Source: Rickettsiales bacterium (lineage in GTDB: Bacteria; Pseudomonadota; Alphaproteobacteria; Rs-D84). Taken from it: a DNA stretch of 64,000 nucleotides. Made by a program: the position numbers and the translations under genes. The notes under the pieces were generated by a model, which did not search any database, was not told where the DNA came from, and saw only the letters and a list, made by a program, of their open reading frames with translations. How positions within the stretch are numbered: the stretch's first letter is position 1; each line of letters starts with the position of its first letter. Location: positions 16,839 to 80,838 of the forward strand of contig JAISCX010000035.1 of assembly GCA_031265235.1 (NCBI GenBank). The letters run 5' to 3'. Of this stretch, positions 11,426 through 62,968 are shown one piece after another.

Positions 11426-11965
<540 letters not shown>

Positions 11966-19200: not shown

Positions 19201-21345
19201 ATGAAAAGCAAAGTATTTCAGCTTGAATCAAATTACAAGCCGGCGGGCGATCAGCCGGGTGCCATACGCGAATTGTCCGACGGTCTGAAAGACGGCGTTC
19301 GCGACCAGGTTCTGCTTGGCGTCACGGGTTCCGGCAAGACATTCACAATGGCAAGCGTTATCGCGGAAATGGACCGGCCTGCGTTAATTATGGCGCCGAA
19401 CAAGATTCTGGCCGCGCAATTATATACTGAAATGAAGGGATTTTTTCCAAACAATCATGTCGAATATTTTGTGTCATATTACGACTATTACCAGCCAGAG
19501 GCTTACGTTCCCACAACCGACACCTATATAGACAAGGACGCCAGCATAAACGACCAGCTGGACAGAATGCGTCATTCTGCCACGCGCGCCATGCTGGAAG
19601 AGCGCGATGTTGTCGTTGTATCATCAGTGTCCAGCATCTACGGGCTTGGGTCGCCGGAAACATATTCGGAAATGAAGGCCGTGTTCGCGGCCGGCGACAA
19701 GATTGGCATCCGCGATGTTGTCGACGCATTGGTGCGATTGCAATACAAACGCAACGACATCGGATTCAACCGCGGCGAATTCCGCGTCCGCGGCGATTCA
19801 TTGGATGTATTTCCGTCGCACAGTCAGGACCGCGGCTGGCGATTTTCATTCTTTGGCGATGAAATAGAAGACATTTATGAATTTGATGTTTTAACGGGGC
19901 AGAAAACGCGAATGATGGACAGGGCCGCGGTATATCCGAATACCCACTATGCTACGCCGCAGCTGTCAGTGGTTCAGGCCATACACGAAATCCGCCGTGA
20001 ATTGTCGGACCGGTTGGATTATTTCAAATCGAATATGAAATATTTGGAAGAACAGCGCCTGCGCGAACGGACAAACTTTGATATGGAAATGATGGAGGCG
20101 ACGGGCGCATGCCGCGGAATTGAAAACTATTCCAGGTATTTGTCGGGGAGAGGCCCCGGCGAACCGCCGCCAACGCTGTTCGAATATCTGCCAAAGGACG
20201 CCATTTTATTCGTGGATGAAAGCCACGTTTCCGTCCCGCAAATCGGCGGCATGGCGCGGGGCGACCGCGCACGGAAAGAAACGCTGTCACAGTATGGATT
20301 CAGGTTGCCCAGCGCGTTGGACAATCGCCCGCTGACATTCGAAGAATGGGACGGGTTCCGCCCGCAGACCATATTTGTGTCCGCGACGCCTAACGATTGG
20401 GAAATAGAACAGGCGCATGGCGTCGTCGTAGAACAAGTGATACGTCCGACGGGTCTGCTGGATCCCGAATGTTTCGTTCGTCCGACAAAAAATCAGGTTG
20501 ACGATTTATTGCACGAGATCAAAAAAATAGTATGTCATCCCGGCGCGCGCGCTGGCGCGAACCCGGGATCCGGTCATGACATGTGTGTAGAAAATGTTTC
20601 AAACAAGAAAAATCAAGCTAGTTCCCGACCCCACCAGGTCCCGGATAATTTGCCTGCGGCAAATTTCCGGGATGACACCTGTGATACGGGGCGTGTTCTC
20701 ATCACCACGCTTACCAAAAAGATGGCGGAACAGCTGACGGATTATCTTGTCGAAAATGGCGTCCGCGCGCGATATCTGCATTCCGATATAGAAACTTTGG
20801 AACGTATCGAATTGCTGCGGTCCTTGCGACTTGGCGAATTTGACGTTCTGGTCGGAATCAACCTGCTGCGCGAAGGATTGGATATTCCGGAATGCGAACT
20901 GGTCGCGATCATGGATGCGGACAAGGAAGGTTTTCTGCGTTCGGCGCGGTCACTGATCCAGACGATCGGCCGCGCGGCGCGCAACGTGAACGGCCGCGTG
21001 ATTCTGTATGCCGATAGAATAACAAACAGTATGAAGATTGCGCTGGACGAGACCGCGCGTCGCCGGGAAAAACAAAGCGCGTATAACAAAAAGCATAAGA
21101 TAACGCCCGTGACCACGACCAAGGCCGTATTTGCCGAAGTGTCCGAGTTTAAGAAAAAAACAGATGCAAGGAAACAATTTGTGTATAACGACGACGGGCT
21201 TATGACTGCGGACGATATCCGTAAAGAAATTGCAAAGCAGACGCGCCAGATGAAAAAGCATGCGGAAAATCTGGAATTCGAACAAGCCGGGGCCGCGCGC
21301 GACGCAATCCGGCGATTAGAGGACGATCTGTTGTTGTTGGGATAA
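19201..21345 (+). CDS. uvrB: excinuclease ABC subunit B (carries an in-frame palindromic-element insertion)
   Basis: [22 protein letters not shown]...GVTGSGKTF. Helicase motifs and the UvrB YY motif [15 protein letters not shown] are present. A 48-aa insert ([15 protein letters not shown]...) precedes [13 protein letters not shown]. Confidence 0.95.
20533..20677. mobile_element. RPE-like palindromic element, copy A (in-frame within uvrB)
   Basis: Terminal inverted repeats tgtcatcccgg...ccgggatgaca with two internal hairpin modules (GC-stem; tcccggataattt-hp-aaatttccggga). 145 bp, roughly a multiple of 3. Confidence 0.7.
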
Positions 21346-21349
21346 CTTA

Positions 21350-21385
21350 TAGATAATAGATAATAGATAGTAGATACTAGATATC
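21350..21385. repeat. TAGATA-hexamer repeat block (half element)
   Basis: tagataatagataatagatagtagatactagatatc directly after the uvrB stop. Confidence 0.6.
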
Positions 21386-21412
21386 GCTCTGTCCGATAAT
21401 AGGGGTGCTGCA

Positions 21413-21652
21413 AATGTGATTTGTGATCTGTGATTTGAAAATCCGCCGCGGTCTAAATTCCCCTCCTTGGGAGGGGTGTCGGCAAAGCCGACGGGGTGGG
21501 TGCGCAAAATCTGGGCATGCTTGTTTTCGTCTCTCACAAAGTCCGAATACCCACCCCGGACTGCTAGGGCAGCATAGCTGCCAAGCAGGCCGCCCCTCCT
21601 CCGGAGGGGAATGTCGACCGCGGCGGATTTTCAAATCACAGATCACAAATCA
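21413..21652. repeat. 240-bp structured palindromic element with 38-nt terminal inverted repeats (aatgtgatttgtgatctgtgatttgaaaatccgccgcggtc)
   Basis: Left arm at 21413-21452 and right arm at 21615-21652 as an exact reverse complement. The interior carries five or more hairpins. ORFs on both strands start MICDLKIRRG, a mirror artefact. Confidence 0.7.
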
Positions 21653-21674
21653 CGCTTCACCAATCACACTTCAC

Positions 21675-21702
21675 AAAAAATCCGGCATTCGCCGGATTTT
21701 TT
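21675..21702. terminator. bidirectional rho-independent terminator
   Basis: aaaaaatccggcattcgccggatttttt between convergent genes. Confidence 0.6.
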
Positions 21703-23194
21703 ATTCCCCAAAATTATACCTGTTTTCTATATACAGTTCCGTTTTTGCGCCATTCGTATGTGAAAGCAGCCCGATGCCGTGCGGTATGCATTTATTGCTT
21801 TCGAATCTACACACGTTTGCCAATAAGTCGCCATTGTGCCGTATTACATACCAATCTGTTCCTGATGCCGCCGATGCCAGCACATTAAACTTATAACTGC
21901 TTGCTTTATTTTTCTCGATCTCTGCTTCTGAATATGTCGAGAATTTTTGCTGAACCCCGCCATTTGGTATTGTATAGTTGCCGGAATGAGACGAGTCTGC
22001 TGTCGCCGGTTCTATCTTATCCATGCAATCGCCAGCATTTGTTGCGGACGCGCAATAGTTTTTCCATTGGCTATAGGATGACAGAGTCACTTTGCCTTTG
22101 GAAATTATATCTTGTTCTGTTCTGTACGCATGGCCGTTGTCGTCCCAATACAAATATTCTTCGCATGCGGTCAGCTTTTTGCGTTCTTTGCCGATAGTGC
22201 TTTTATTGCTGGCAACGATTACGATTGATACCACGCTGGCGCCCGCGCCGACGCCCGCAGCAATTGTCGCACCCTTGTTCAGTCCGTTATTCAGACCGTC
22301 TTTTTCCTTGACTGCGTTTATGTTCCCGGCGCCGGACGCAATCGCGGACCCGGCGTTGGCCACGGCGCCGACAATCTGGAAAGTCTTTGCGGTTTTCAAA
22401 TTCTTTGCAGGTTTAGACACGTCGATGTTATTCGCGCATTTTGCTATTTCCATCATGGGATTGTTATCGCGTCCCTCTGTATGCGCCTGCATTGCTATTT
22501 CTTTGAATTCCTTGACTGCGCTGTTCCACTCGTTTGTTTTTGCATCGGCGAGATCATTTGCAACGCTGCCGATCACACTGACCGAAATCACGTTGGTGAT
22601 CAATCCGCCGGCCGCCGCGCCCATTCGCACCCAGTTCATGGTTTGGTTGAACCCGGCGTTGGAATCGTTCTTGTTGACCAGGTACGCGATCATCGCGTCG
22701 TTGGACACTTCCTTGCCTTCGCTGGTCTTGAATATGTCGTTTTTCAGATCGTCGCACGTTTTGGCCTTGATCGTTTTGCCGTCGGCGTCTTTGGAATCCT
22801 TATACGCGTCCGGGTTTTTGGATTTGTCAGCCGCGCAGTCTGCAGAGAAAGCCGATTCGAATTCTTTTTTCAGATCAGCGTCCGCCATCTTGGCCAGATC
22901 ATCCCCGTATTTCGCATCCGCGCGCGCGGACCTGGAATCCTTTATAATTCCGGTCGCGACAGCCGCGCCGTCAAGAATGACGCCGATAACGGACGCAAGC
23001 ATCGCGTTTGACAATTTTTTTTCTGCGCCGTATATGGAATCGAACAGCGCGTCGTGCTTGTCGCGCATGTTTTTGATCGCGCCCAGTTCGAAATCTGTCA
23101 TGTCGCCGTATGATTGCGCGTCGATCGGACGTGCCGCGAAAGCAGGTGTAATTAAAATTGCGGATAATAATCCGGAGATAATTTTTGTTTTCAT
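21701..23194 (-). CDS. hypothetical secreted Ala/Gly/Lys-rich protein (signal peptide MKTKIISGLLSAILITPAFAA)
   Basis: 497-aa ORF of low complexity with Cys pairs near the C-terminus. Confidence 0.6.
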   Translation of the reverse strand: MKTKIISGLLSAILITPAFAARPIDAQSYGDMTDFELGAIKNMRDKHDALFDSIYGAEKKLSNAMLASVIGVILDGAAVATGIIKDSRSARADAKYGDDLAKMADADLKKEFESAFSADCAADKSKNPDAYKDSKDADGKTIKAKTCDDLKNDIFKTSEGKEVSNDAMIAYLVNKNDSNAGFNQTMNWVRMGAAAGGLITNVISVSVIGSVANDLADAKTNEWNSAVKEFKEIAMQAHTEGRDNNPMMEIAKCANNIDVSKPAKNLKTAKTFQIVGAVANAGSAIASGAGNINAVKEKDGLNNGLNKGATIAAGVGAGASVVSIVIVASNKSTIGKERKKLTACEEYLYWDDNGHAYRTEQDIISKGKVTLSSYSQWKNYCASATNAGDCMDKIEPATADSSHSGNYTIPNGGVQQKFSTYSEAEIEKNKASSYKFNVLASAASGTDWYVIRHNGDLLANVCRFESNKCIPHGIGLLSHTNGAKTELYIENRYNFGE

Positions 23195-23271
23195 GTTATC
23201 CTTCCTTTACAGATATTATATCATGCTATCAATTTGAGTTCAACATATATTTGCTATCAAAATGCTGGCAA

Positions 23272-23520
23272 ATGAAAACGACCACCAAATCCATTTTCAA
23301 TCCGAAATACAAACGCCTGATTGACGATATGGTGGACGCGCGCAAGAAAAAGGGGTGGAGCCAGCGCGAGCTGGCCAAGCAGGCAGGCGTGTCGCATTGC
23401 TTTATCGGGCGCATGGAGACACGCGAACGTCGGCTGGATGTGATCGAGGCCGTCGAGATTATGAAGCTTTTGGGGTTGAGCAGGTCGATGATTCTTAAAA
23501 AAGTATCTGAATTGCTGTAA
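23272..23520 (+). CDS. XRE-family helix-turn-helix transcriptional regulator
   Basis: GWSQRELAKQAGVSHCFIGRMETRER is a typical HTH_XRE segment. Start at MKTTTKS. Confidence 0.7.
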   Translation: MKTTTKSIFNPKYKRLIDDMVDARKKKGWSQRELAKQAGVSHCFIGRMETRERRLDVIEAVEIMKLLGLSRSMILKKVSELL

Positions 23521-23596
23521 GCATGGCCGGCGCCCGCATTTTCTTGAAATCGTATAATAATTTGATAAACTATTTCCAAAGCCAAGGGATTATAAA

Positions 23597-24016
23597 ATGC
23601 ATATTGCCACCGTATCTGATATGCGCGCATGGGCGTGCGGGTTCGCAATGGGTCTGCGCGCGCCGCGCGCGGTCGCGCTGCACGGCGATCTGGGAATGGG
23701 AAAAACCGAAATCGCGCGCGCGATTATTCAAACGCTTTGCGGGTCGGATACCGTGGTGCCAAGCCCGACATTTACGCTGGTTCAGAGTTATGATGCGAAA
23801 TCCGGGGGAGACGCGACTCCCCGGATTTCGCATTTTGACCTGTATCGTATAACAGACGCGTCAGAGCTGGAAGAAATAGGATTATCGCACGCATGCGCGA
23901 ATGATATAACGCTTATAGAATGGCCCGAGATTGCGGAAAGCATGCTGCCCCGCGACACCGTTCATATTTATATCACGGCGGAAGGAGAAGGGAGGAAGAT
24001 AGAAATTAAAGAATGA
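23597..24016 (+). CDS. tsaE: tRNA threonylcarbamoyladenosine biosynthesis ATPase TsaE
   Basis: Contains GDLGMGKTEIARAI, PSPTFTLVQSY and HFDLYRI. A short palindromic insert (GGDATPRI) sits inside. Confidence 0.8.
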   Translation: MHIATVSDMRAWACGFAMGLRAPRAVALHGDLGMGKTEIARAIIQTLCGSDTVVPSPTFTLVQSYDAKSGGDATPRISHFDLYRITDASELEEIGLSHACANDITLIEWPEIAESMLPRDTVHIYITAEGEGRKIEIKE

Positions 24017-24092: not shown

Positions 24093-24722
24093 TTATTGCG
24101 GCAGCAACGATTGAACGGCAATCGCAAAGTCCGGCGCATTGGCCAGATAATTGCCGCTTACCAGAAAATCCGCGCCGGCGCGCCAGCATGCGGCCGCGGT
24201 ATCCGGGTTTATTCCGCCGTCCACGCTTATTTTGAATCCAAGGCCATACCTTTTGCGCGTGTTGTTCAATGCGAATATGCGGCCCAAAGCGGCGGCCAGG
24301 AATTCCTGGCCGCCCGCGCCGGGCACGACCGACATTACGAGTATCTCGTCAATCTCGCGCAGTATCGGCTTTAATATTTCGATCGGTGTTTCCGGATGCA
24401 GCGCGATTCCGGCGCGTTTGCCCCGCCGCTTGATTTCCGCGATCGCTTTCCGGACGCCCGCTGTTCCCGTTGAAAGTATTATCGTGTCCGCGCCTGCGTC
24501 CGCCGCCTGTCCCGCCCAGGATTCCGGGCTTTCAGTCATCAGATGCACATGCAGGTGCGCTTTCGTATGTTCGCGGATAAATTTCAATTCATCAATTCCG
24601 CCGGACACCGTGTCCACATAGAATCCGTCCATTATATCAACGTGAATCATAGAAACGCCGCCTGATTGAAAACGTGCGTATGTCGCGGGATCGCGCATGT
24701 TGAACGCAAGCGTGCTGGGCAT
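24093..24722 (-). CDS. rpe: ribulose-phosphate 3-epimerase (in the same reading frame as, and continuous with, upstream ftsA)
   Basis: Contains MIHVDIMDG, VMSVVPGAGGQEF and ISVDGGIN. Its ATG at 24722 overlaps an out-of-frame TAA (TAATG). Confidence 0.8.
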   Translation of the reverse strand: MPSTLAFNMRDPATYARFQSGGVSMIHVDIMDGFYVDTVSGGIDELKFIREHTKAHLHVHLMTESPESWAGQAADAGADTIILSTGTAGVRKAIAEIKRRGKRAGIALHPETPIEILKPILREIDEILVMSVVPGAGGQEFLAAALGRIFALNNTRKRYGLGFKISVDGGINPDTAAACWRAGADFLVSGNYLANAPDFAIAVQSLLPQ

Positions 24723-25880
24723 TATCGGGATAAATCTTTGTTTTTTCTTTTTCGGGAAAAGCTTTGAGAATGCGGATATGATTTTTGACAAGGCTTTTTC
24801 GCGGCGGTCGGATCGCGCCGCATATGTTCTGGCGAGCGGTTCCATCTGTTTCCAAATATATGATGCGTTCGCTTGGACCGCGGCTGCGGGACCGATGTTT
24901 TTGACGGGAATTCCGAACATGTTTGATACAAAATCGTCTATGCCCGTGATGTTCGCGCCGCCGCCGGACAGATATATTCGGACGGGCGCGTATTTTTGAA
25001 TCGCATTTTTTGTGGCATCGAACGCCGCCTGCAAGATTTCGGAAAGCACCGGAATCGCGATATCGTTCACGTCGCCTTTGGAAAAATCATGTTTGGAACT
25101 GGCCGGCGTAAACCTGTCCATATCGCCGCCGGATAGGGATATGTTCTCGCGTTTTATCTTTTCCGCAGCGTTGAAGGACAAATCAAGCCCGCTGGCGACG
25201 GAGTCGGTTATCGATGACTGCGCGTTCGGTATTTTTTTATAAAAAACCGGCCCCCTGCTTGTCCAAACCGACACGGACGTATGGCTTGCCCCAAGGTCCA
25301 GTAATACAGCCGGCTCTTTTTTTGGGCGCATTGTGCATGCGATTAAAAACGCCGGATCAAAAAAATCGCGCCCCATGATGTGCGCGGCGCGCGCGGCGCC
25401 GCGCACATCATTTATCCCGTCGGCATCATAGGCGATCGCGCCAAATGCCGCGGAAACATGCGTATCCGAAAGACCAACCGGCGTCGTGATATTTTGCAGT
25501 TCAAGCAGATCATAGCGCAGCGGAATTATATGCATCGGCGCGAAATAGGGCGATATTTCGGGAATTTCCGAAATCAAAGCATCAATATCGGCGTCCGATA
25601 TTTTATGTTCTTTGATCCAGTCTTTCTTTCTGACAAGCAAGATATATTCCAATGCGCCGAAATTTCCGGTGACATATGCGGAATCAAAGCGCGCGCCGAT
25701 GTCTGATTCTATCGCGTCGACGACAGTCCGGACCCCGGCGCCCGTATCGAACGATTCGCATGCGCGGATGGCGGATTTTGCAATGCGTCCGGACACTATG
25801 CGGAACCCTATCCCGCGAACCGCGGTTGTGCCGATGTCAAGACATAGAAAAGAGTTGTCGAATAAATTCATAATCAGCAA
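24723..25880 (-). CDS. ftsA: cell division protein FtsA (no in-frame stop; reads through into rpe as a 595-aa fusion ORF)
   Basis: Actin-fold motifs LCLDIGTTAVRG, LLDLGASHTSVSVW and IYLSGGGANITG. The C-terminal amphipathic segment is ALSKIISAFSKLFPKKKK. The gene lies downstream of ftsQ as in the dcw cluster. Confidence 0.75.
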
Positions 25881-28456: not shown

Positions 28457-28579
28457 CAAAGAGCAAAGAGCAAAGAACAAAGAGCAATAATGCCCTTGTC
28501 TTTATCCTTGCTTTACAACATAGGTTATAAAGATGAGAAAATATTATTTGTTCTTTGCTCTTTGCTCTTTACTCTTTGC
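28457..28579. repeat. heptamer-repeat palindrome: (CAAAGAG)4 ... (CTCTTTG)4 arms separated by ~50 nt
   Basis: Left arm at 28457-28491 and right arm at 28543-28579. The right arm overlaps the start and signal peptide of the 28533 gene. Confidence 0.7.
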
Positions 28580-29855
28580 TGCTGGCTGCGTACAACAGAT
28601 GCAAAACCGGGGACAGCCGATGTATGATGATGTTACGGTTGTCGAAAATCTGGTTATTGACGAACGGTCCGTGCCAATATTCCCGCGCAAAGCCGCGCTT
28701 ACGACCGATACCGCGCGTCGTTTTGCGCTGGATCTGCCGAAACGCTGCACGGTTGATTGGGACAATCAGCGCGTTTTATCCGTTCTGCCGGAAGAACGCG
28801 TGGAAATGACGCAATTGGACAAAGGCGACCCGCTGCCCGAATTTGCCGTTGAAAACTATTCCTTTGAAAAACTGACCGTCCGGGACGCGCTGGAAAAACT
28901 GCTTGCCGGAACGAATATCCGCGTGATAGAGGACGAGAATATCCCCGATAAAATCACCGGCACGATCAAATCCGGGGAACTGGCTGATGCCGTGGACCTG
29001 CTGGTCAGAATGGGCAAGGCATATTATTCTTATGACGACGCGACGCGCGATCTGCATATAGGGCGCCGGGCGCAATTTCTGATGAAAATGCCGAAAGATC
29101 AAATGATAATAATGGCGCTGATCGATGCGATGCGCGGAATGGGGATTGGAAACCTGATGGTCAACTGGGAAGACAAGACGCTTGCATTCGAAGGAAATTA
29201 CCAGACCGAACGCGAAGCGCGTCAGATAATCACCGATCTTGGCGCCCAAAAATATCTGATCGCATGGGATATTGACATATACCGCGTATATCCGCGGACG
29301 GATAATCCGATTATCTGGATGAACATGCTGCCTGCGCTGGGCGAAAAGAATATAAAAATGTCCATTCCGGGCGTCGTCGGGCGCGCGCTGGTCGTGGGAC
29401 CCGAAATAAATACCAAAACATTGCAGGAGTTTCTGGGCCAGCAGGCAAACGTGGTTCTTATTTCCCAGGGGACTTTCTCGATCCCGAACGGGTGGCAGTC
29501 GCGGTTTGACATCGGCCAATGTTCGCGCGAAGAACGTTTGGAAACAGACCTGATTGTCGGCGCGATCGGCAAATACGGCGACTATGCGGGGATGAAGAAA
29601 TTGGATACAAAGCTGGCGCTGCGAACGCATGCCGGGGAAATCGCGACATACCAGGTGCCCAGCACCATCGGCGACAATTATGTAATTATCGGGATTCCAA
29701 CGCATTCGTTTGTGCAAGGCACGGAAACATTGATATCGCCCTTTGCCGAGTTGGTCGTGTTCATGTCCCCCCGCATTATTTCAATAACAAATGGCGCCGC
29801 GGTGCCGGCGGCGGCGCTGTCGGGTCAGAACCTCCGGGACTATTTGGATGAATAA
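28533..29855 (+). CDS. outer-membrane lipoprotein with secretin-like C-terminus (putative)
   Basis: Lipobox LLFAAGC. The C-terminal VPSTIGDNYVIIGIPTHSF...AELVVFMSPRII resembles the secretin signature (VP.LGDIP..G.LF...ELLIFITPRI). Confidence 0.45.
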   Translation: MRKYYLFFALCSLLFAAGCVQQMQNRGQPMYDDVTVVENLVIDERSVPIFPRKAALTTDTARRFALDLPKRCTVDWDNQRVLSVLPEERVEMTQLDKGDPLPEFAVENYSFEKLTVRDALEKLLAGTNIRVIEDENIPDKITGTIKSGELADAVDLLVRMGKAYYSYDDATRDLHIGRRAQFLMKMPKDQMIIMALIDAMRGMGIGNLMVNWEDKTLAFEGNYQTEREARQIITDLGAQKYLIAWDIDIYRVYPRTDNPIIWMNMLPALGEKNIKMSIPGVVGRALVVGPEINTKTLQEFLGQQANVVLISQGTFSIPNGWQSRFDIGQCSREERLETDLIVGAIGKYGDYAGMKKLDTKLALRTHAGEIATYQVPSTIGDNYVIIGIPTHSFVQGTETLISPFAELVVFMSPRIISITNGAAVPAAALSGQNLRDYLDE

Positions 29856-31171: not shown

Positions 31172-31175
31172 AATT

Positions 31176-31294
31176 TAGATACTAGATACTGGATACTAGA
31201 TATTAGATATTAGTTTTGAACGCACTGAGAATTTATTGCGCCATCCGAACCAATATCTAGAATCTAATATCTAGAATCTAGTATCTAGTATCTA
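31176..31294. repeat. TAGATA-hexamer palindromic element (full, two inverted arms around 40-nt core)
   Basis: tagatactagatactggatactagatattagatattag ... ctaatatctagaatctaatatctagaatctagtatctagtatcta. Confidence 0.7.
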
Positions 31295-31306
31295 AAAAGG
31301 TAAATA

Positions 31307-35276: not shown

Positions 35277-36929
35277 TTATCTGGTCGTGACGGTCACGCT
35301 GTCCATGTATGTCTTTTCGATCGTGTCCATCTGGTATGGCTGAAAGTTCGGATCGGACATAATCGAAATATCCGAATCATCTTCGGGCAGTATATAAATA
35401 GGCGACATTTGCGGCGATACGGGCGCCGCGGCCGATGCGCCGGACAATCTGTATGTCTTTGCGGAATACTGGCCCGCCAATGATTTTGGCAGCGATATGT
35501 AATCCATCGGGTTTATGCCGTTCGTTATTTCAATTTCCGACGGACGCCGGCTGTCCGCGGCTGTCGTGTTGTATAACGGGTTTATAAAGTTCCGGGCGGC
35601 CGGTGCTTTGACCTTGGGTGCGCCGCTGCCGTCAAGGCGCATGATTTGCAGCGCGCGTTCGTCCGCGCCGTTCGGACGCAGCCGCACAAGCCCGTCCAGC
35701 CCCTTGAATCCGGACGGATCCAGCAGATACGCCGCCAGGCTTTTGCTTGAAGACAAAGCGCCGATGGAAAGCATCGCCGCATCATATCCCATGGAATTCA
35801 TGCGGTTCGGCGCGACCCCCATCAAGTCCGTGTATGTCCGCGCGAAATCCAAAGAAATGGACGGCAGCGCCGCGTATTCCGCGCCATTCAGCGTCATGTC
35901 GGAAAACATGCTGTCCGCGTCCCACATCGCCGTTCCGTAAAATCTGATCGTGTTTGTTGGCACGTCGTAATAACGCAAAAATGACGCCAGTGCCTTGGAA
36001 TCAGCGGCATTGCCCAGGAACAGGACGGCGTCATACGGCAGTTTTCCGACGGTGTCCGATTTGTTCAGCGCTTCCAATTGTTTGTTGATGTATGCTTTTT
36101 CGACCGACGGCAGCTGCTTTTTCAAAAGAATGTCGGACAATATCTCTTTGGCGCCGTTGTTCGCCTTTTCCCGCGGACCAAACATTGACGCGCGTTCGGC
36201 CACTGATTTTTGGCTGCCCATGTCGCCTTCGTCATAGTAATACATGCCGGTCACGCGCATATTGTTAATATATGCCGATTCAAGCGCGGCATTGGCAAGC
36301 ATGTATCCCGTCTTTGTATCGGGGCTTAATATCAATATGTTTGATGCGCCCGCGGCCGCCATGTGGCTGGTCACCGCCTCGGCCCCTTGGTTCGGCAACA
36401 GCGCGAGCGTAAAGACGCCGCCGCTTAGCGCCGTTTGGTCGGACGTGAACGTTATCGCAGGAATCGCGTCAGGCTTTAACCCGCGCAATATTTCGACGTC
36501 TTCGGCGAATATGGGTCCAAGAATCATATCCGGGTTGCGGGATATCACATGTTCCGCGACCGCGATTTTTTTCGCCCGATCGCCCGACATATCGTTAAAC
36601 GCGACCATTACGCCATTCGGCTGTTTTTGAAAGAACGCGATTTCTATCGCATGCTGGATGCCCTGGCCGATTGCGGCGTTGGGACCCGACAGCGGCAAAA
36701 GCACCGCCACGGTTTTTATGTTTTCCGAAAATGCGTCCGGTTCTTCGAATGACACCAGGGCCGCGGATTCATGGCCTTCGTCGTAAAAATCCTGGTCGAT
36801 TGCGGCAGGCGCGCCGGCTGGCGGCAGTTCGCCGTATTCATATCCCCAATCGCGGTTATGATTGGCACAGCCAATCAGAAAGAACAAAGAACAAATAGCG
36901 CACAGCAAAGATATTTTTTTAATAAACAT
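35277..36929 (-). CDS. lpoA: LppC/LpoA-family lipoprotein (penicillin-binding protein activator-like, periplasmic-binding-protein fold)
   Basis: Lipobox LFFLIGC. VAVLLPLSGPNAAIGQGIQHAIEIAF is PBP-type-I-like. Divergent from rsmI as in the E. coli rsmI-lpoA arrangement. Confidence 0.65.
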   Translation of the reverse strand: MFIKKISLLCAICSLFFLIGCANHNRDWGYEYGELPPAGAPAAIDQDFYDEGHESAALVSFEEPDAFSENIKTVAVLLPLSGPNAAIGQGIQHAIEIAFFQKQPNGVMVAFNDMSGDRAKKIAVAEHVISRNPDMILGPIFAEDVEILRGLKPDAIPAITFTSDQTALSGGVFTLALLPNQGAEAVTSHMAAAGASNILILSPDTKTGYMLANAALESAYINNMRVTGMYYYDEGDMGSQKSVAERASMFGPREKANNGAKEILSDILLKKQLPSVEKAYINKQLEALNKSDTVGKLPYDAVLFLGNAADSKALASFLRYYDVPTNTIRFYGTAMWDADSMFSDMTLNGAEYAALPSISLDFARTYTDLMGVAPNRMNSMGYDAAMLSIGALSSSKSLAAYLLDPSGFKGLDGLVRLRPNGADERALQIMRLDGSGAPKVKAPAARNFINPLYNTTAADSRRPSEIEITNGINPMDYISLPKSLAGQYSAKTYRLSGASAAAPVSPQMSPIYILPEDDSDISIMSDPNFQPYQMDTIEKTYMDSVTVTTR

Positions 36930-38429: not shown

Positions 38430-41222
38430 GTGTCGGCGAATAACATTTTTTGCGCAAGCAACCCGGCAAAGATTGTCGACGCGCTGTGGCAGGTTCTGAC
38501 AAATAAAATCTCGGCGCGTGAAAGCGCGACGGATGATTTTTCCAACGATATAATTTTTTTGCCCAGCCGCCGCGCCGTCGGAACCGTTGAAAGGATGATT
38601 GCCGAAAAGACGGGCGCGGCCGTATTGCTGCCGCGGCTTGTCGCGCTTGGGGAAGAAGCCGAAGATGACGGGCCGCAAGAAGATAAATCTGAAAAAGGCG
38701 GCCCGGGCGCGCCGGTATCGAATCTTGAACGCGCGGCTGTCCTGGCAAAAATGCTGACCGCGCACATGGACGGCGGAATAGCCGGGACACTGCCGGTTGC
38801 GAAAGATCTGGTTCGGACGATGGATTATCTGGAAAACGAAAGGAACGCGGACCGGAAAACAGAAATAAACTGGTCTGAATTGGTTTGCGAGAAATACGCC
38901 GTGCATTTCCGGGACAAGGCGCGGTTCTTGGATTTGGCATGCAGGGCTTTGCCCCTTGTATTTCCAGGAAGAGAGACTGTCGCGCAAAAACGCAACAAGG
39001 ACGTTCGCGGCTGGATCGAATATCTGAATAAGCACAAATCACGAATAATTGTATGCGGATCAACCGGCTCGGTGCCCGCGACTGCGGACCTGATGGAATA
39101 TATCGCGGGGCGCGCTAATGGATATATTATTCTTCCTGGAAAGATAAACGAGATCCGAGATACGTTGTGCGAGATCCGAGATACAAATCCGTATTATTCT
39201 GAAATGAAGTTTCTTGAACGGATTTGTGTCATGCCAACTGATGTTCAAACGATTGATGTTGGCGAATCCGCCATAGGTTTTTTCAATTCAGCTTTTGATA
39301 ATAATACAAATCACAGATCACAAATAACAAATCACGACGCGCGTTTCACGCGCGTCGACTGTGCCCGCGAAGCGGAAGAAATGGAGACTGTCGCCGAAAT
39401 CGCAAAGGACGCCGCATCAAGCGGCAAGACCGTTCTGATCGTATCCCCGGACAAGGCCGCGGCGCAGCGGCTGCGGGAATCATTGATTATGCGATCCGTG
39501 GAATTTGACTTTTCCATCGGGATGTCCGGCGGATCGACAAAGCTGGGAAGACTTGTTTTGAACATGCTGGATGAGGGAAAAGGGAAAAGGGATGGGGGAA
39601 AAGGATATGTGCGGGACATTTGCGCTGAATACAAAAAAACGGGCGATTTGTTTGGGGCCGTCCAGAATATGGTTGAAGATTATGTGTCATCCCGGGCGCC
39701 GCTTTGCGGCGACCCGGTATCTTGTCAGGACCAGGGACTAGAAGATGTTCAAAATAACGAAGATTCCGATTATCTCCAGAATGACAAGATCCCGGGTTCC
39801 GCTTCGCGGCCCCGGGATGACACAAATCGCCACTCACAAATCACCCATCACGATATAACATCCGAAGAATCTCTGGCGGTTTGGGACGCCGTTCGCGAAG
39901 TTTCGGATATCATAAAAAATAACAGGCTTGAACTGTCAAAGCCCGATTTGCGCGGACTGGTCGCGGAAGCGTTAGATACGGTGAATATCAGGCCGCCGGG
40001 AAAGGAAGGCTGTCCCGTCTGCATTCTTGGCACAATCGAATCGCGAATGCAGACGGCGGACGTCGTGATTTTAACCGGGCTTAATGAAAACATGTTTCCG
40101 GCGACGGGTTATGAAAATCCCTGGCTGCCGCGGCGCGTATGCGACGCGCTGGGCATGCCGCCGCCCGAACGAAAAGTGTCTTTGATGGCGATGGATTTTA
40201 TTACGCTTTCCTGCGGGGGGGATGTTTATTGGACGCGGTCAAAGACATCGGGCGGATATGACACGACGGAATCGCGATTTCTGTCGCGGGTAAGTGTGAA
40301 AGAAAACAAGGGCAAGGAAATTCTTATTGATGACGGTTCCGAATGGCTTGCGCGGGTTCGCGCCCGCGACAGTGTGCCGCTGCGTCCTTTGGATTATTTA
40401 GCGCCAAAACCAAACGCCGATTGGTCGGATGTTTTTGTGACGGAATTGGAACTGCTGGTTCATAATCCGTATGCTTTTTATGCCAGACATATATTGCGCC
40501 TGAGACCATCGCCGGATCCGTGGGATGACGCATCCGCGATTGATTTCGGAAATATCGTGCACGAGGCGATAAAGGAATTGACGATATCCGAAAAGGACAC
40601 GCAATGTCGCGACATTATCGAAATACTTAAACAGAAAGCGAAAGAAAAGCTGGAACCCGGCAGCATTCTGTTTCATTTCTGGGATGCGCGCTTTAAAGAA
40701 ATGGCGCCGTTGGTAAAAGAATTTATAGACGAGGCTAAAAGCGACGACGTTGTGTGGTCTGCCGCGGAAGACGCGGCCACGGGCGTTGTTGAAATCGCGG
40801 GCCGAAATGTTCGCGCCAAGGCGGATTGCGTTTATGTAAAGAGGGAAGAGGGAAGAGGGAAGAGGGAAGAAATCGGTTGTGCCATAGATATAAAAACCGG
40901 AAGGGTGCCTTCGAATTCTCAATTAGATAACGGCATGATGCCGCAGCTGCCGTTAGAGGCATATATGCTGAAAAATAAAAAGTTTACCGGGCAAAACGTT
41001 TTGCCCGCGCGCGTCGTTATGAAGTTCCTGCAACTTTCCCGCGGAAAATGCGGCGTGATTGAATATGCGGGCGAAGACTTGGATAATAAAATCGGCGCGG
41101 CGATCGCCAAGACGACCGAATTGTTCAATATGTATTCCGCGGGCGGCAAGGCGTATGAGTATCGCGAAACAGGGGACGATAAATACAAGGCATACGACGA
41201 TCTGGCGCGGGCGTGGGATTAG
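38430..41222 (+). CDS. addB: double-strand break repair nuclease AddB-like (alphaproteobacterial type) riddled with in-frame repeat insertions
   Basis: IIFLPSRRAV...LLPRLVALG resembles the AddB N-terminus and TVLIVSPDKAAAQRLRESL is AddB-like. The C-terminal block AKADCVYV...AIDIKTGR is PD-(D/E)XK-like. Inserts include EGKGKRDGGKG, KREEGRGKREE and an RPE-like copy. Confidence 0.5.
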   Translation: MSANNIFCASNPAKIVDALWQVLTNKISARESATDDFSNDIIFLPSRRAVGTVERMIAEKTGAAVLLPRLVALGEEAEDDGPQEDKSEKGGPGAPVSNLERAAVLAKMLTAHMDGGIAGTLPVAKDLVRTMDYLENERNADRKTEINWSELVCEKYAVHFRDKARFLDLACRALPLVFPGRETVAQKRNKDVRGWIEYLNKHKSRIIVCGSTGSVPATADLMEYIAGRANGYIILPGKINEIRDTLCEIRDTNPYYSEMKFLERICVMPTDVQTIDVGESAIGFFNSAFDNNTNHRSQITNHDARFTRVDCAREAEEMETVAEIAKDAASSGKTVLIVSPDKAAAQRLRESLIMRSVEFDFSIGMSGGSTKLGRLVLNMLDEGKGKRDGGKGYVRDICAEYKKTGDLFGAVQNMVEDYVSSRAPLCGDPVSCQDQGLEDVQNNEDSDYLQNDKIPGSASRPRDDTNRHSQITHHDITSEESLAVWDAVREVSDIIKNNRLELSKPDLRGLVAEALDTVNIRPPGKEGCPVCILGTIESRMQTADVVILTGLNENMFPATGYENPWLPRRVCDALGMPPPERKVSLMAMDFITLSCGGDVYWTRSKTSGGYDTTESRFLSRVSVKENKGKEILIDDGSEWLARVRARDSVPLRPLDYLAPKPNADWSDVFVTELELLVHNPYAFYARHILRLRPSPDPWDDASAIDFGNIVHEAIKELTISEKDTQCRDIIEILKQKAKEKLEPGSILFHFWDARFKEMAPLVKEFIDEAKSDDVVWSAAEDAATGVVEIAGRNVRAKADCVYVKREEGRGKREEIGCAIDIKTGRVPSNSQLDNGMMPQLPLEAYMLKNKKFTGQNVLPARVVMKFLQLSRGKCGVIEYAGEDLDNKIGAAIAKTTELFNMYSAGGKAYEYRETGDDKYKAYDDLARAWD
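39686..39821. mobile_element. RPE-like palindromic element, copy B (in-frame within addB)
   Basis: tgtcatcccgggcgccgctttgcggcgacccgg...cccgggttccgcttcgcggccccgggatgaca, the same architecture as copies A and C. Confidence 0.7.
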
Positions 41223-46412: not shown

Positions 46413-47495
46413 ATGAAAAAATCTTTGATATTTGCTATTTGCTCTCTTCTCTTTGTTTATGGTTGCCGCGACTTGACGCAGCAAAGCCCGTCCGTCACGA
46501 CGGACGACGGAATAAAGCCGCGGAATTTGACGCGCGCGTCGTTTTCCGATTTGCCGGGGTGGCGCGCGGATGACGTGCGTTATGCGCTGAAAGCTTTCCG
46601 CAATACGTGCAAAGCAAAAATAAGCTATTCCGGCAAGGTTGTCCCGGACCGGTATCTGCTGGAAGAAAAGTGCCGGGTTTTGCCGAATGAATCCGCGGAC
46701 AATGCCACCGTCCGCGCATGGTTTGAATCGCATTTCCAGCCTTATAAAATAGCGGACGAATCCGGCAAGACCAAGGGAACGTTTACGGGGTATTATTCCC
46801 CTGTCGTACAGGCATGCCGCGCGCAGACTGCGAAGTGCAGCGTGCCGATTATGGATACGCCCGTCGACGGCCGCCAGTATAAAGGCGTCGATAGCAAAAC
46901 ATTGGTCAAGGGCAGAATCGGCCGCGTGATTTTCTGGATAGATCCGATTGACTTGCAGGATATGGGATCGGCAACGCTGATACTTGATGACGGGACCAAG
47001 GCAAAGGTAAACGTCGCGTCCACGAACGATCTGCCGTTCAACGGGATCGGGGGCCAGCTGAAAAATCGCGGAATCCGTCCCGCGGACGGATACGGCATGA
47101 AGTCGGTCCGCGCACACCTGAAACAAAATCGGACGCTTGCCAATGAACTGATAGACAATAATCCGCGGTACGTATATTACCGCCAGTCGGATAATTTCGA
47201 TGTGATCGGAAACATGGGCGTGGGCTTGTCAAAAATACGCTCCATCGCCATGGATACCAGCATTTATTCATTGGGGCTGCCGGTTTTTGTGGATACAAAC
47301 CTGTCAGATTCCAGCAAGTTTCAGCGTCTTATGATCGCCCAGGATACCGGTGGCGCAATCAAGGGCTGGGTGCGCGCAGACATTTATTTCGGCGTGGGGG
47401 ACGACGCGTTTCAATACGCCCAGGGACAGTATTCAAGCGGCGAAGCATACATACTTATGCCGAAACAGTATGAATACGTAAAGCCAAGCTTTTAA
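46413..47495 (+). CDS. mltA: membrane-bound lytic murein transglycosylase A
   Basis: Lipobox LLFVYGC. TFTGYYSP is the MltA motif, and the C-terminal 3D domain is AQDTGGAIKGWVRADIYFGVGDDA. Confidence 0.8.
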   Translation: MKKSLIFAICSLLFVYGCRDLTQQSPSVTTDDGIKPRNLTRASFSDLPGWRADDVRYALKAFRNTCKAKISYSGKVVPDRYLLEEKCRVLPNESADNATVRAWFESHFQPYKIADESGKTKGTFTGYYSPVVQACRAQTAKCSVPIMDTPVDGRQYKGVDSKTLVKGRIGRVIFWIDPIDLQDMGSATLILDDGTKAKVNVASTNDLPFNGIGGQLKNRGIRPADGYGMKSVRAHLKQNRTLANELIDNNPRYVYYRQSDNFDVIGNMGVGLSKIRSIAMDTSIYSLGLPVFVDTNLSDSSKFQRLMIAQDTGGAIKGWVRADIYFGVGDDAFQYAQGQYSSGEAYILMPKQYEYVKPSF

Positions 47496-47606: not shown

Positions 47607-48104
47607 ATGACAGCCATAATTATGAACAAAGCACAGGATTTTAACAAACGCAAAGGCCGTCCGCAGACGCTGGGCGGGGCCTTTGGCGATCTTTTGCGAA
47701 AGTTTGGACGACATTCGTCCGATGCGGATTTGGTGGCCAGATGGGTTGATATCATGGGGCCGGAAATTGCAGGAATCGCGGATTTGGTTTCGATATCAAA
47801 AATTAAAAGCAATGTGTCATCCCGGGCGCGGCAGAGCCGCGACCCGGGACCTGGTCATAGCCAGGGAATAGAAAATGTTTCCGATAGAAGAAACATTAAT
47901 AATCCCAATTCCCACCAGATCCCGGATAATTTTTCGCATTCTGCGAAAAATTTCCGGGATGACACCCTTGGCCGCGTAATGACCGTGCGGGCAAAGAATC
48001 CGGCTGCGGCGCTGGCCCTTTCCTATAAGGTTGCCGATATCCGCGCGGCCGCAAACAAGTATTTCGGATACGACGCCGTCGTGCGCGTGATCGTGAAAAA
48101 ATGA
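47607..48104 (+). CDS. DUF721 (DciA-like) family protein with in-frame palindromic-element insertion (start uncertain)
   Basis: C-terminal YFGYDAVVRVIVKK and N-terminal ...LVARWVDIMGPEIAGIADLVSI fit DUF721. The middle ~50 aa are encoded by RPE-like copy C. Confidence 0.5.
   Translation: MTAIIMNKAQDFNKRKGRPQTLGGAFGDLLRKFGRHSSDADLVARWVDIMGPEIAGIADLVSISKIKSNVSSRARQSRDPGPGHSQGIENVSDRRNINNPNSHQIPDNFSHSAKNFRDDTLGRVMTVRAKNPAAALALSYKVADIRAAANKYFGYDAVVRVIVKK
47816..47964. mobile_element. RPE-like palindromic element, copy C (in-frame within DUF721 gene)
   Basis: tgtcatcccgggcgcggcagagccgcgacccggga...cccggataatttttcgcattctgcgaaaaatttccgggatgaca. Confidence 0.7.
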
Positions 48105-53102: not shown

Positions 53103-53161
53103 AAAAAACTCCTTTTCCTTGTGGAAAAAGCATAGGAAAAAAACGTGGGGAAAGCAAGGGA

Positions 53162-53283
53162 ATAGATAATAGATAGTAGATACTAGATATTAGATATCGA
53201 TTTTTGGCAGACATGGCAAGCATCAAAATCTGGAAAGTCCACATCAGTTCAACTGTGAACGAATATCTAATATCTACTATCTC
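53162..53283. repeat. TAGATA-hexamer palindromic element (full)
   Basis: atagataatagatagtagatactagatattagatatcga ... cgaatatctaatatctactatct flanking a ~75-nt core. Confidence 0.7.
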
Positions 53284-54464
53284 TTCTTTGGCAATAACAC
53301 GAATATTCCGGTCAATATGCCGATGACCCCGGTCAGCAGCCAGACAGAGCCGGTCGTGCCGAACAGCATGATGACAAAGGCGCCCATCATCGGAACGATA
53401 AACCGCGGCAAACGGTTTACGGTTTTGAATATTCCGAAAAACTTCTCGCGGTCGCGTCCGCGCGCCGCGTCGAAAAAGAACATGTCTGTCAGCGGTTCTA
53501 TCAATGCGCCCGAGATCTGCCAAAGTATGAATATCCAAAGCAATGTCCGCCCTGTCGCAAACGATGCCCAGAATGAAAACGCCGCGAATGACAGAAAGCC
53601 CAGCGCCACCCATATGTTTATGCCTGTTTTTTTTGCGATTCTTCCCAACGGCTCTGCCAGGATTATGTATGGAACGATTCCAGCGGTCAGCACCAGCCCA
53701 AGCGTATCTTTGCTGAATCCTGCCTCTATAACCATTATCGGAACATACAAAAGCCGGATTGCGGAAAGCGCGTATTGCCCGAAATTTATCATATACGCGC
53801 GGACCAGTTCGCGCCGGCGGAAATATCCGATCGTTGTTTTCCATACGGATTTCATCGTCCTGCGCGTGCTTATTTTCGGAATCCGCTTGTCCGGCTGGAT
53901 AATGCCGAACCATTTGAAATAAAGCAGCCCCAAGATATTGAACAAGGCGACTGCAAAAAACGGCGTTCTGATTCCAAAATTTTTTGCCATATACATTGCA
54001 AGAATAGGCGCGAGAAGCGCGCCCATGTTTATCCAGAACACATAGCGGCCGTTAAGCTTTTCCATGCCGACGCCCTTGGAAAAATCCACCATAAACAGAG
54101 CAAGCAGCGACGTCACCAGCATCTGCGGCACGGCGGAAGCAAAGTCCAGCGCGACAAATGTCGCCGGCTTTACGGAAAACGCCATCATGAAATACATTGC
54201 GGCGACGGACAGCAGGCTGAATGTCAACAGCTTTGCCTTGCTGGATAATTTTAACAATTCGCCGGAAAATAAAGTTATCAGCATGAAAAACACGTAATAC
54301 ACGGAAGAATAAATGCCGATGGTCGCAGAGTTATGGAATATGTCCAACAGCACCAACGCCCATACGGCGTTTATTATGCCATCGCTAAATCCTTTGAATA
54401 GTCCGAGATTTGCGAACGAGAATCCGTTGACGCGTTCTCTGACGGACAGATATTTATCGGCCAT
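53277..54464 (-). CDS. MFS transporter
   Basis: 395 aa with about 12 predicted TM helices and an MFS-typical G-x3-D/R loop (GELLKLSSKAK). Substrate unknown. Confidence 0.7.
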   Translation of the reverse strand: MADKYLSVRERVNGFSFANLGLFKGFSDGIINAVWALVLLDIFHNSATIGIYSSVYYVFFMLITLFSGELLKLSSKAKLLTFSLLSVAAMYFMMAFSVKPATFVALDFASAVPQMLVTSLLALFMVDFSKGVGMEKLNGRYVFWINMGALLAPILAMYMAKNFGIRTPFFAVALFNILGLLYFKWFGIIQPDKRIPKISTRRTMKSVWKTTIGYFRRRELVRAYMINFGQYALSAIRLLYVPIMVIEAGFSKDTLGLVLTAGIVPYIILAEPLGRIAKKTGINIWVALGFLSFAAFSFWASFATGRTLLWIFILWQISGALIEPLTDMFFFDAARGRDREKFFGIFKTVNRLPRFIVPMMGAFVIMLFGTTGSVWLLTGVIGILTGIFVLLPKKR

Positions 54465-62850: not shown

Positions 62851-62874
62851 TGCAAAAATCTTTCTTGTTTTTTA

Positions 62875-62968
62875 GTGTAAGTGACAGTGTAAGTGCAAGT
62901 GGTTTAGATTATAATATAAAGCTTGTCCATAATCCGAACCGCTTGCACTTACACTGTCCTTACACTTA
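62875..62968. repeat. palindromic element (gtgtaagtgacagtgtaagtgcaagtgg ... cgcttgcacttacactgtccttacactta)
   Basis: 28-nt inverted arms around an AT-rich core. Related motifs are gtgtaagcgcaagtgacaag at 26652 and agagtaagagg.../...cctactctt at 41221-41293. Confidence 0.6.

Follow-up and report, generated by a model that had tools for sequence, protein, structure and literature searches.

The element considered here is a 240-bp palindrome at 21413-21652 of a 64,000-nucleotide stretch of DNA (the window; positions 16,839 to 80,838 of contig JAISCX010000035.1, assembly GCA_031265235.1) from a Rickettsiales bacterium. Among its closest described likenesses are the repetitive extragenic palindromes (REPs) and their doublets, the REPINs, which occur as palindromic singletons and as inverted dimers folding into one hairpin, like the module found here (Bertels & Rainey, 2011, PMC3116915; Di Nocera et al., 2013, PMC3733652). 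Most REPs lie downstream of genes, and others within genes for replication and repair, uvrB among them; their dimers have been reported inserted within long palindromes, and those of Anabaena variabilis (…ATTTGATTnnTGAAA--TTTCAnnAATCAAAT…) show the same arrangement as the window element (PMC3733652). The latter is likewise built on a repeated short palindromic module, two inverted copies of which form a single hairpin, with variable spacers and heterodimers that have different stems. It differs in that the module comprises two hairpins and a G-rich tail and is enclosed by an outer palindrome of heptad arrays, in that no conserved unpaired GTAG or CGTC/TGTC tag is present, and in that no gene for a REP-associated tyrosine transposase (RAYT) was seen in the window.

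The Rickettsia palindromic elements (RPEs) insert in-frame into housekeeping genes and add peptide segments to their products (PMC10969869). As with these, the host is a Rickettsiales-type alphaproteobacterium and the element is palindromic, RPEs being about 100-150 bp long and the core here 156 nt. Half-modules of the family to which the core belongs (Family A) lie in-frame in addB and engB-like genes of a relative, and members of a second family (Family B) lie in-frame in uvrB, addB and a DciA-like gene. The present copy is, however, intergenic, Family A occurs in contigs of 34-67% GC well outside the Rickettsiales, and the likeness drawn here is one of architecture.

Over-representation of heptamers, occasionally as inverted pairs, is known for the short tandemly repeated repetitive (STRR) sequences of cyanobacteria, for GGGAATC-type repeats of Xanthomonas and Nostoc and for TAACTGA in Beggiatoaceae (PMC4692102, PMC4679880). 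The window arrays resemble these heptamer simple sequence repeats (SSRs) in having 7-nt units in 2-7 copies, in lying mostly in intergenic DNA near gene ends, in forming some inverted stem-loop pairs and in the turnover of both length and sequence between close relatives. In contrast to the named examples, many units coexist here, arrays stand in-frame within open reading frames (ORFs), namely in linkers of addB and in the cores of signal peptides, the same multi-unit 'alleles' are met again at distant loci, and the host is a termite-gut-type alphaproteobacterial metagenome-assembled genome (MAG). No window unit equal to GGGAATC or TAACTGA was found with Tandem Repeats Finder (TRF) and a period scan, and to our knowledge none of the STRR1-3 units equals a window unit either. 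Elhai and co-workers are said to have described, in 2008, small hairpin-forming dispersed repeats (SDR) nested in Nostoc heptamer arrays, an association like that of the present module with heptads; these were reportedly 21-27 nt long, against about 38-60 nt for the present module.

[quoted passage not shown] They have defined terminal repeats and target duplications, whereas no target duplication accompanies the window element. Terminal inverted repeats are present in it at two levels, at the ends of the core (ATTCCCCTCC / GGAGGGGAAT) and in the outer arms, which are perfect over 38 nt. Since the GTAG/CGTC tag and a target duplication are both lacking, the module is likened here to REPs and MITEs and is not assigned to either class. 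Our reading is that the palindrome is probably an inverted dimer of a REPIN/RPE-like module nested in a heptad-armed hairpin, and that it is most likely selfish or neutral repeat DNA at this locus.

Anatomy of the palindrome

The 240-bp palindrome is a three-layer composite of small repeated DNA and not a single gene. Outermost are the heptad arms, then comes a GC stem, and innermost a two-hairpin module present as an inverted dimer, arranged as follows (scores are those of covariance model R1, described in the next section).

21416-21436: left outer arm, a heptad array (TGTGATT/TGTGATC)3
21437-21453: left half of the 17-bp GC stem, GAAAATCCGCCGCGGTC, pairing with 21616-21632
21457-21612: core of 156 nt, in which two Family A two-hairpin modules form an inverted dimer; its ends are ATTCCCCTCC / GGAGGGGAAT
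21458-21499, plus strand: left Family A copy, TTCCCCTCC TTG GGAGGGG TG TCGGCAAAGCCGAC GGGGTGG (55.9 bits, E = 1.3e-12)
21502-21548: central non-palindromic spacer of 47 nt, between GGGGTGGGT (21493-21501) and ACCCACCCC (21549-21557)
21551-21611, minus strand: right Family A copy, inverted (36.4 bits, E = 1.8e-7)
21616-21632: right half of the 17-bp GC stem, GACCGCGGCGGATTTTC
21633-21677: right heptad array (AATCACN), about 6.6 units

The 38-mer GTGATTTGTGATCTGTGATTTGAAAATCCGCCGCGGTC is found exactly at 21416-21453 on the plus strand and at 21616-21653 on the minus strand, with no further match in the 64-kb window at up to three mismatches (0 expected); when mismatches are tolerated the inverted repeat reaches 61 nt at 92% complementarity, pairing 21416-21476 with 21593-21653. 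The first three units of the right array (to 21653) pair with the left arm, and three further units run into the terminator that follows. The GC stem resembles the terminator stems of this genome, that at 21675-21702 included, in its succession of A-tract, GC stem and T-tract. It is followed by AUUUUC only, a U-run of 4 nt whose bases are paired in the full fold, and the terminator scan made no call there. The 17-nt non-heptad part of the arm (GAAAATCCGCCGCGGTC) is not repeated elsewhere in the window, and no flanks of this type were seen around other Family A copies; its pattern gave at least 120 single matches in the genome collection, which are chance or coding matches. The motif AAATCCGSCG was also considered as a repeated terminator family and was rejected, its other sites being ordinary coding sequence.

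Inside the arms the two modules (21458-21499 and 21551-21611) pair with each other through their outer ends and through the long-range stem GGGGTGGGT/ACCCACCCC, which stands beside the inner hairpins, to give a single hairpin. The core folds into a closing stem and three inner helices, that is, a four-way junction. The second hairpin of the right copy is longer than that of the left and of different sequence (CTGCT.GGCAGC-TAT-GCTGCC..AGCAG), and the central spacer has no similarity to any compared sequence (window, relatives' contigs and metagenome loci). For the palindrome as a whole the RNA folding energy is -185.1 kcal/mol on the plus strand (z = -18.0) and -185.3 kcal/mol on the minus strand (z = -15.5), relative to shuffles.

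An original prediction, made from the letters of the window, had already recognised perfect 38-nt inverted arms, and both exact copies were located. The arm that it quoted was 41 nt long, of which 38 nt pair and the three outer bases, AAT, do not. All of the internal hairpins it listed are found in the sequence, and it rightly took the mirror-image ORFs for artefacts of the palindrome, through which stop-free frames run on both strands.

Distribution and covariation of the Family A module

The Family A module is about 40 nt long and has the form TTCCCCTCC-N3-GGAGGGG-NG-(covarying GC hairpin)-GGGGTGG; the unit common to the window and its relatives is ATTCCCCTCC-N3-GGAGGGG-TG-(GC hairpin)-GGGG(T/A)GG. 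When the intergenic region was compared by BLAST with contigs of relatives, the interior was matched and the arms were not (E = 9e-8 and 5e-5 in locus L236, 5e-5 in locus L239). The covariance model R1 was built from an alignment of 21 distinct copies, with the right window copy and the copy in the engB-like gene of L236 outside the training set. The first hairpin and the G-tail are invariant in this alignment because the search pattern demanded them, while the second hairpin was unconstrained. R1 gave 51-56 bits for the L239 copy and two L236 copies, of which that in the engB-like gene scored 51.4 bits. It found no module in the window beyond the two copies at 21458-21611 and nothing at E <= 0.1 in 733 kb of 100 unrelated genomes, and a BLAST comparison of the interior with 231 random and metagenome loci gave no match.

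The relatives carry the module in several settings. A half-module lies in-frame in the addB gene of L236 (…AIPLLRRGAAIGGGEGLSV…), and the copy inside its engB-like gene is in reverse orientation. In L239 a full element of about 163 nt (494-656), which shares its ends and its four-way-junction fold with the window core, directly follows the uracil-DNA glycosylase (UDG) gene, and L247 (1823-1925) has a four-way architecture like that of the core. Pattern scans of IMG/VR recovered first 4 stretches and later 23; the GC content of the contigs is 34-67%, each has up to five copies, and several of these copies are inverted dimers with spacers of 11-33 nt, and dimers similar to that of the window were seen in L247, L281, L286 and L287. 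Half-modules, dimers and both orientations all occur among the Family A copies, and the bases 5' of ATTCCCCTCC vary in every copy (TCTAA, CGAC, GGCT, ATGAT, AGGGT and others). The two window modules thus belong to a dispersed family that reaches far beyond this lineage.

It was also observed in L239 (440-710) that the Family A element is flanked by an imperfect direct duplication, 51 nt long, of the 3' end of the UDG gene including its stop codon. Either the element apparently entered together with this target duplication or it gave rise to it; duplications of the transposase type are far shorter.

The second hairpin, left free by the search pattern, shows compensatory substitution. At alignment pair 22/34 the combinations CG (10), GC (7) and UA (2) were counted, and at pair 24/32 CG (9), GC (5), AU (3) and UA (2). 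Across this hairpin 96% of cells are paired and the covariation score is 0.183, compared with 0.048 in shuffles (none of 500 shuffles reached the observed value) and 0.007-0.045 in slid controls. The second hairpin is therefore conserved through compensatory changes.

The module is also statistically associated with flanks of period 7. Self-identity of the flanks at lag 7 exceeded the 95th percentile of random sites in the same contig for 11 of 36 modules, and the control lags 5, 6, 8 and 9 gave 2, 0, 1 and 2 modules, respectively; because several of the contigs are related, the independent contexts among these cases number perhaps 5-6. In L245 the module stands within one direct heptad array and splits it.

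A search of Rfam 15 with 21200-21900 returned no family at gathering or permissive thresholds, only chance-level matches, so the comparison of the interior with Rfam that had been proposed alongside the original prediction was carried out and came back empty. Five other module-bearing loci likewise had no Rfam match, and across the whole window Rfam recognised two tRNAs only. The CCCCTCC/GGAGGGG module was also looked for in the literature, where no description turned up.

Heptad arrays, Family B and the uvrB locus

Our own scan counted 15 period-7 arrays in the window against 0.6 in shuffles; periods 4-6 and 8-13 gave 0-3 arrays, and period 14, a multiple of 7, gave 6. The units detected by TRF and the period scan include TGTGATT/AATCACA, ATAGATA, CAAAGAG, AATTAAC, AAGAGGG and CGAGATC, among others, and a BLAST comparison of the window with itself showed that the array at 21355-21384 is identical, 30/30, to 53161-53190. 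Three other inverted heptad hairpins were found, at 28457-28580, 31174-31296 and 53168-53285, each enclosing a unique non-palindromic spacer of 43-70 nt. The syntenic contigs of related Alphaproteobacteria are similar in this respect, with 7-9 period-7 arrays per 8-12 kb and essentially none at other periods; CAAAGAG, AATTAAC and AAAGAAC are units common to them and the window, and the arrays at orthologous sites differ.

Some of these arrays occupy conspicuous positions. The hairpins at 31174-31296 and 53157-53285 have arms that are 85-95% complementary and fill two intergenic regions, the former a 135-nt gap between lolE-like permease and lolD-like ATPase genes and the latter just upstream of recA. 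At 28457-28580 a start codon and its ribosome-binding site lie between the inverted arms. Inside N-terminal regions of ORFs (28547-28580, 36877-36895 and 46421-46443), arrays of TTTGCTC/TTTGTTC type encode hydrophobic signal-peptide cores; besides MRKYYLFFALCSLLFAAGC at 28533, the examples comprise a lipoprotein resembling LppC and a protein resembling MltA. A hairpin akin to the array hairpins, though not made of heptads, stands at 62874-62958, between a cobalamin adenosyltransferase-like gene and a dUTPase gene; its 30-nt arms, 90% complementary around a 16-nt loop, are made of 6/12-nt units (AGTGTA AGTGAA).

According to the original prediction the arm motif of the palindrome recurs in addB, and two arrays there bear on this.

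39306-39335, plus strand: addB array 1, encoding …NTNHRSQITNHD…, with an exact 19-mer of the right arm at 39307-39325
39821-39851, plus strand: addB array 2, encoding …TNRHSQITHHD…, degenerate, abutting the right end of the Family B insertion at 39684-39823

The recurrence holds exactly over 19 nt in the first array, which is of the right-arm type with one extra unit and lies in a variable AddB linker, and only in degenerate form in the second. The recurrence is not a coincidence; the 18-mer arm motif has five matches in the window against 0.11 expected. The addB matches are nevertheless not copies of the 240-bp element, because the generic class of heptad arrays accounts for both. An alignment with 11 homologues showed five heptad arrays in addB, all in-frame and all at linker or insertion positions. 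A further hairpin near the first array, CGACGCGCGT-TTC-ACGCGCGTCG, was considered as an insertion and rejected because it lies within conserved AddB sequence (RFTRVD).

Beyond the window, the exact arm 19-mer was found in 111 metagenome stretches, always within an (AATCACA-like)n array and in unrelated, mostly GC-rich DNA. An inverted partner array lies within 400 nt in 51 of the 108 distinct loci, at a median spacer of about 23 nt; 43 of these 51 pairs have the order TGTGATT…AATCACA, as in the window, and 8 the opposite. The arm motif in addB belongs to a separate class of repeat that pervades this genome, its relatives and numerous metagenome contigs unrelated to it. In the heptad arms the known heptamer-SSR phenomenon is met once more, here with different units and with an unusual presence inside ORFs.

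A second palindromic family, Family B, was noted in the window, with ends GTGTCATCCCGG…CCGGGATGACAC, a length of 140-152 nt and a mean identity of 78%. Its three copies are the following.

20532-20678: in uvrB, in-frame, 147 nt, adding 49 aa
39684-39823: in addB, in-frame, a 46-aa insertion unique to this protein, with a hairpin of -85.7 kcal/mol
47814-47965: in a DciA-like ORF, in-frame

All three share one reading frame and give similar peptides (…ENVS…PDN…NFRDDT). The pattern of the ends, GTCATCCCGG-N100-130-CCGGGATGAC, recovered 33 IMG/VR stretches of 61-73% GC. Family B fits the CGTC/TGTC-tagged REP dimers of Alphaproteobacteria, of RPE-4/RPE-6 type (PMC3733652). Further in-frame repeat insertions were noted in relatives: TsaE of L238 (3150-3290) has 206 aa against 136 aa, owing to a GC-rich palindromic insert, and in AddB of L236 a segment of about 17 aa, SPQRPATGD(R/K)QERGT, occurs twice at distant positions.

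The surroundings of the palindrome are as follows.

19201-21345, plus strand: uvrB, with Pfam UvrB domains and a product of 714 aa
21347-21386: solo heptad array (ATAGATA)5 directly after the uvrB stop (TRF and period scan)
21675-21702: bidirectional terminator-like hairpin AAAAAATCCGGC-ATTC-GCCGGATTTTTT, overlapping the stop codon of the 497-aa ORF
21701-23194, minus strand: convergent 497-aa ORF, secreted, with Sec-type signal peptide MKTKIISGLLSAILITPAFA|A
23272-23520: divergent gene of 82 aa, XRE-type helix-turn-helix (HTH)
23597-24016: tsaE

The palindrome lies 70 nt past the uvrB stop, between convergent genes, and the setting that had been predicted for it, between uvrB and a secreted-protein gene, is confirmed by the Pfam domains of UvrB and the signal peptide of the 497-aa ORF. 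UvrB here has 714 aa compared with 662-664 aa in most homologues. The 497-aa ORF has no Pfam match, and its product has only two distant homologues among 5.8 billion proteins, 35-38% identical and not syntenic. The bidirectional terminator placed just beyond the palindrome is also there, as a hairpin 22 nt downstream with a 12-bp perfect stem flanked by A6/T6; around it Rfam gave only sub-threshold terminator-like matches.

The comparison of presence and absence in relatives was run as well. In those closest to the window (UvrB 82-86% identical; L238, L241, L242) tsaE follows uvrB after 10-34 nt and the palindrome is absent; one relative has an additional 242-aa ORF between the two genes, and in L238 a heptad array (CTAAAAG)n stands right after the uvrB stop. 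Since relatives have uvrB beside tsaE and the window tsaE begins only at 23597, the region 21346-23596 is a lineage-specific insertion of about 2.25 kb, missing from close relatives. It holds (ATAGATA)5, the palindrome, the terminator, the 497-aa ORF and the XRE-type HTH gene, with the palindrome at its uvrB-proximal edge.

Two features elsewhere in the window may be recorded here. At 24093-25880, next to ftsQ, an ORF encodes a fusion of 592-595 aa between an FtsA/PilM-like N-terminal part and a complete ribulose-phosphate 3-epimerase domain, which is kept in relatives (L238, 4591-6369; L241, 3362-5140). A perfect (CA)18 at 11441-11476 lies in the 5' coding region of an ORF whose product matches an N-terminal domain of lower baseplate protein, and the gene that follows has Laminin_G_3 and TIG domains; such an arrangement is typical of a surface or tail-fibre-like protein subject to phase variation through slipped-strand events.

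Origin of the element and alternative explanations

The palindrome is most likely a REPIN/RPE-like repeat and not a new gene or system, and the finding is to that extent largely ordinary. Heptad-armed hairpins without the module exist independently in the window and in metagenomes, and the module doublet may have arrived by hairpin-dependent (single-strand) insertion, or by a template switch, into such a pre-existing hairpin; alternatively, a monomer together with its flank might have been inverted-duplicated, or mirrored. The perfect 38-nt arms may then have been kept identical through intrastrand template switching. If transcribed from uvrB or from the convergent ORF, so stable a hairpin would block read-through and 3' exonucleases as a side effect. 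A barrier of this kind against read-through and 3' decay between the convergent genes is plausible, but nothing calls for such a role, given a canonical terminator at a distance of 22 nt and relatives that do without any such structure.

Several observations weigh against reading the element as a nested repeat of this type. Arms identical at 38/38 positions stand beside second hairpins that are wholly different and unrelated, a combination that misfits a single simple inverted duplication, which was accordingly rejected as insufficient to explain the origin. There is only one Family A locus within the 64-kb window. No direct repeat of at least 4 nt, and hence no target-site duplication, was found at the borders of the 240-bp palindrome or of the 156-nt core, and no transposase or RAYT domain is present among the approximately 50 ORFs of the window, so that no candidate mobilising enzyme was seen there. 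The module is without the GTAG/CGTC tag of the classified REP superfamilies, many of the IMG/VR copies come from a few related contigs, and covariation in the second hairpin would also be expected of a functional RNA.

In two other explanations the palindrome acts as RNA. It could have been exapted as a cis-acting RNA, serving as a bidirectional terminator, an insulator or a 3'-end stabiliser between convergent genes, as the REP/BIME and ERIC repeats can. The convergent setting 70 nt past the uvrB stop is in keeping with this, as are the inner stem GAAAATCCGCCGCGGTC/GACCGCGGCGGATTTTC, which has the A-tract, GC stem and T-tract of the genome's own terminators, the extreme stability on both strands equally, and the reported preference of REPs for positions downstream of coding regions (PMC3733652). 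We nevertheless consider such a role unlikely: the clean bidirectional terminator at 21675-21702 already stands 22 nt downstream, the inner stem is followed by a U-run of only 4 nt, which takes part in pairing in the full fold and was not called by the terminator scan, close relatives need nothing here, their uvrB running into tsaE, and members of the family lie inside ORFs, where termination would be harmful. The original prediction had also allowed for a stand-alone non-coding RNA gene with a symmetric structure, in effect a four-way-junction RNA. L239 and L247 do have the four-way architecture in common despite sequence change, and the second hairpin covaries, but Rfam gave no match even at permissive thresholds, both strands fold equally well, and the copies occur as half-modules and dimers in both orientations, including in-frame in proteins. 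No convincing promoter is adjacent either, the only candidates being weak 9/12 matches in the heptad array. An RNA gene is thus very unlikely, and that proposal is not supported.

A MITE-like dispersed family was the other possibility originally raised, with the 38-nt arms as its ends and the heptad motif as its terminal signature. The terminal inverted repeats are indeed perfect over 38 nt and the motif does appear again in addB. A dispersed family does exist, but it is the interior module that defines it and not the arms; the 17 non-heptad nucleotides of the arm recur neither elsewhere in the window nor in the flanks of the other Family A copies. The expected target-site duplication was sought and is missing at either border (none of at least 4 nt), the right array extends three units past the repeat, and the heptad motif, as a generic array, also occurs in 111 metagenome stretches that are unrelated and do not have this interior. 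It is therefore highly improbable that the arms are the ends of a MITE. Nor is a DNA-level binding site at all probable, whether as operator- or centromere-like heptad arrays or as a cruciform recognised by a structure-specific protein. The AATCACA arm unit (21632-21677) fits the WATCACW heptads bound by the omega repressor of Inc18 plasmids. The arms also match heptad regions of such plasmids by BLAST, at E values of only about 0.006-0.2, and the unit forms inverted pairs in many unrelated contigs with an orientation bias of 43 to 8. The plasmid matches (Enterococcus and Streptococcus, in unannotated heptad regions) were rejected as homology at these E values and regarded as a coincidence of units. 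A single binding protein is unlikely because the window arrays use many unrelated units and lie also inside ORFs; moreover, no ribbon-helix-helix gene was seen among the window ORFs scanned, and the unit is not conserved at orthologous sites between L238 and the window. Finally, the sequence comes from a MAG, and errors of amplification or assembly can produce perfect inverted repeats. A fold-back chimera is scarcely credible here, as the palindrome lies inside a contig of 122 kb, the genes on its two sides are genuine and differ from each other, its interior is not a perfect palindrome, and both halves are independent members of a family present in many other assemblies.

Coming back to the nested module dimer, a more speculative and rather improbable extension is that the module and the heptad arrays are two products of one as yet unrecognised hairpin-directed process of DNA insertion or template switching, a kind of 'stuttering', at work in distant bacteria and phages. 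Such a process would insert the module, generate or extend the adjacent 7-nt arrays and mirror the flanks into long perfect palindromes; in proteins it would give rise to peptide insertions in-frame and even to the cores of signal peptides. If this were true, the 240-bp element would be a fresh footprint of the process and not a chance nesting of unrelated repeats.

As it is most likely repeat DNA in the 3' region of a gene, the palindrome matters little for its own locus. Its significance lies in what it tells of the lineage. This poorly known, termite-gut-type group of Alphaproteobacteria has three classes of small repeat, namely heptad arrays, an untagged module and TGTC-tagged REP dimers, which remodel intergenic regions and extend core DNA-repair proteins in-frame, with 49 aa added to UvrB and about 100 aa to AddB. 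The phenomenon of 'selfish DNA in protein genes' known from Rickettsia is thereby extended to this lineage. Recognition of such palindromes, which cause spurious mirror ORFs and can break assemblies, also improves the annotation of MAGs. The two-hairpin module itself, with no Rfam entry and no description found, is yet widespread, including in viral contigs, and its association with heptads offers a handle on how heptamer arrays arise and on how untagged REP-like elements move.

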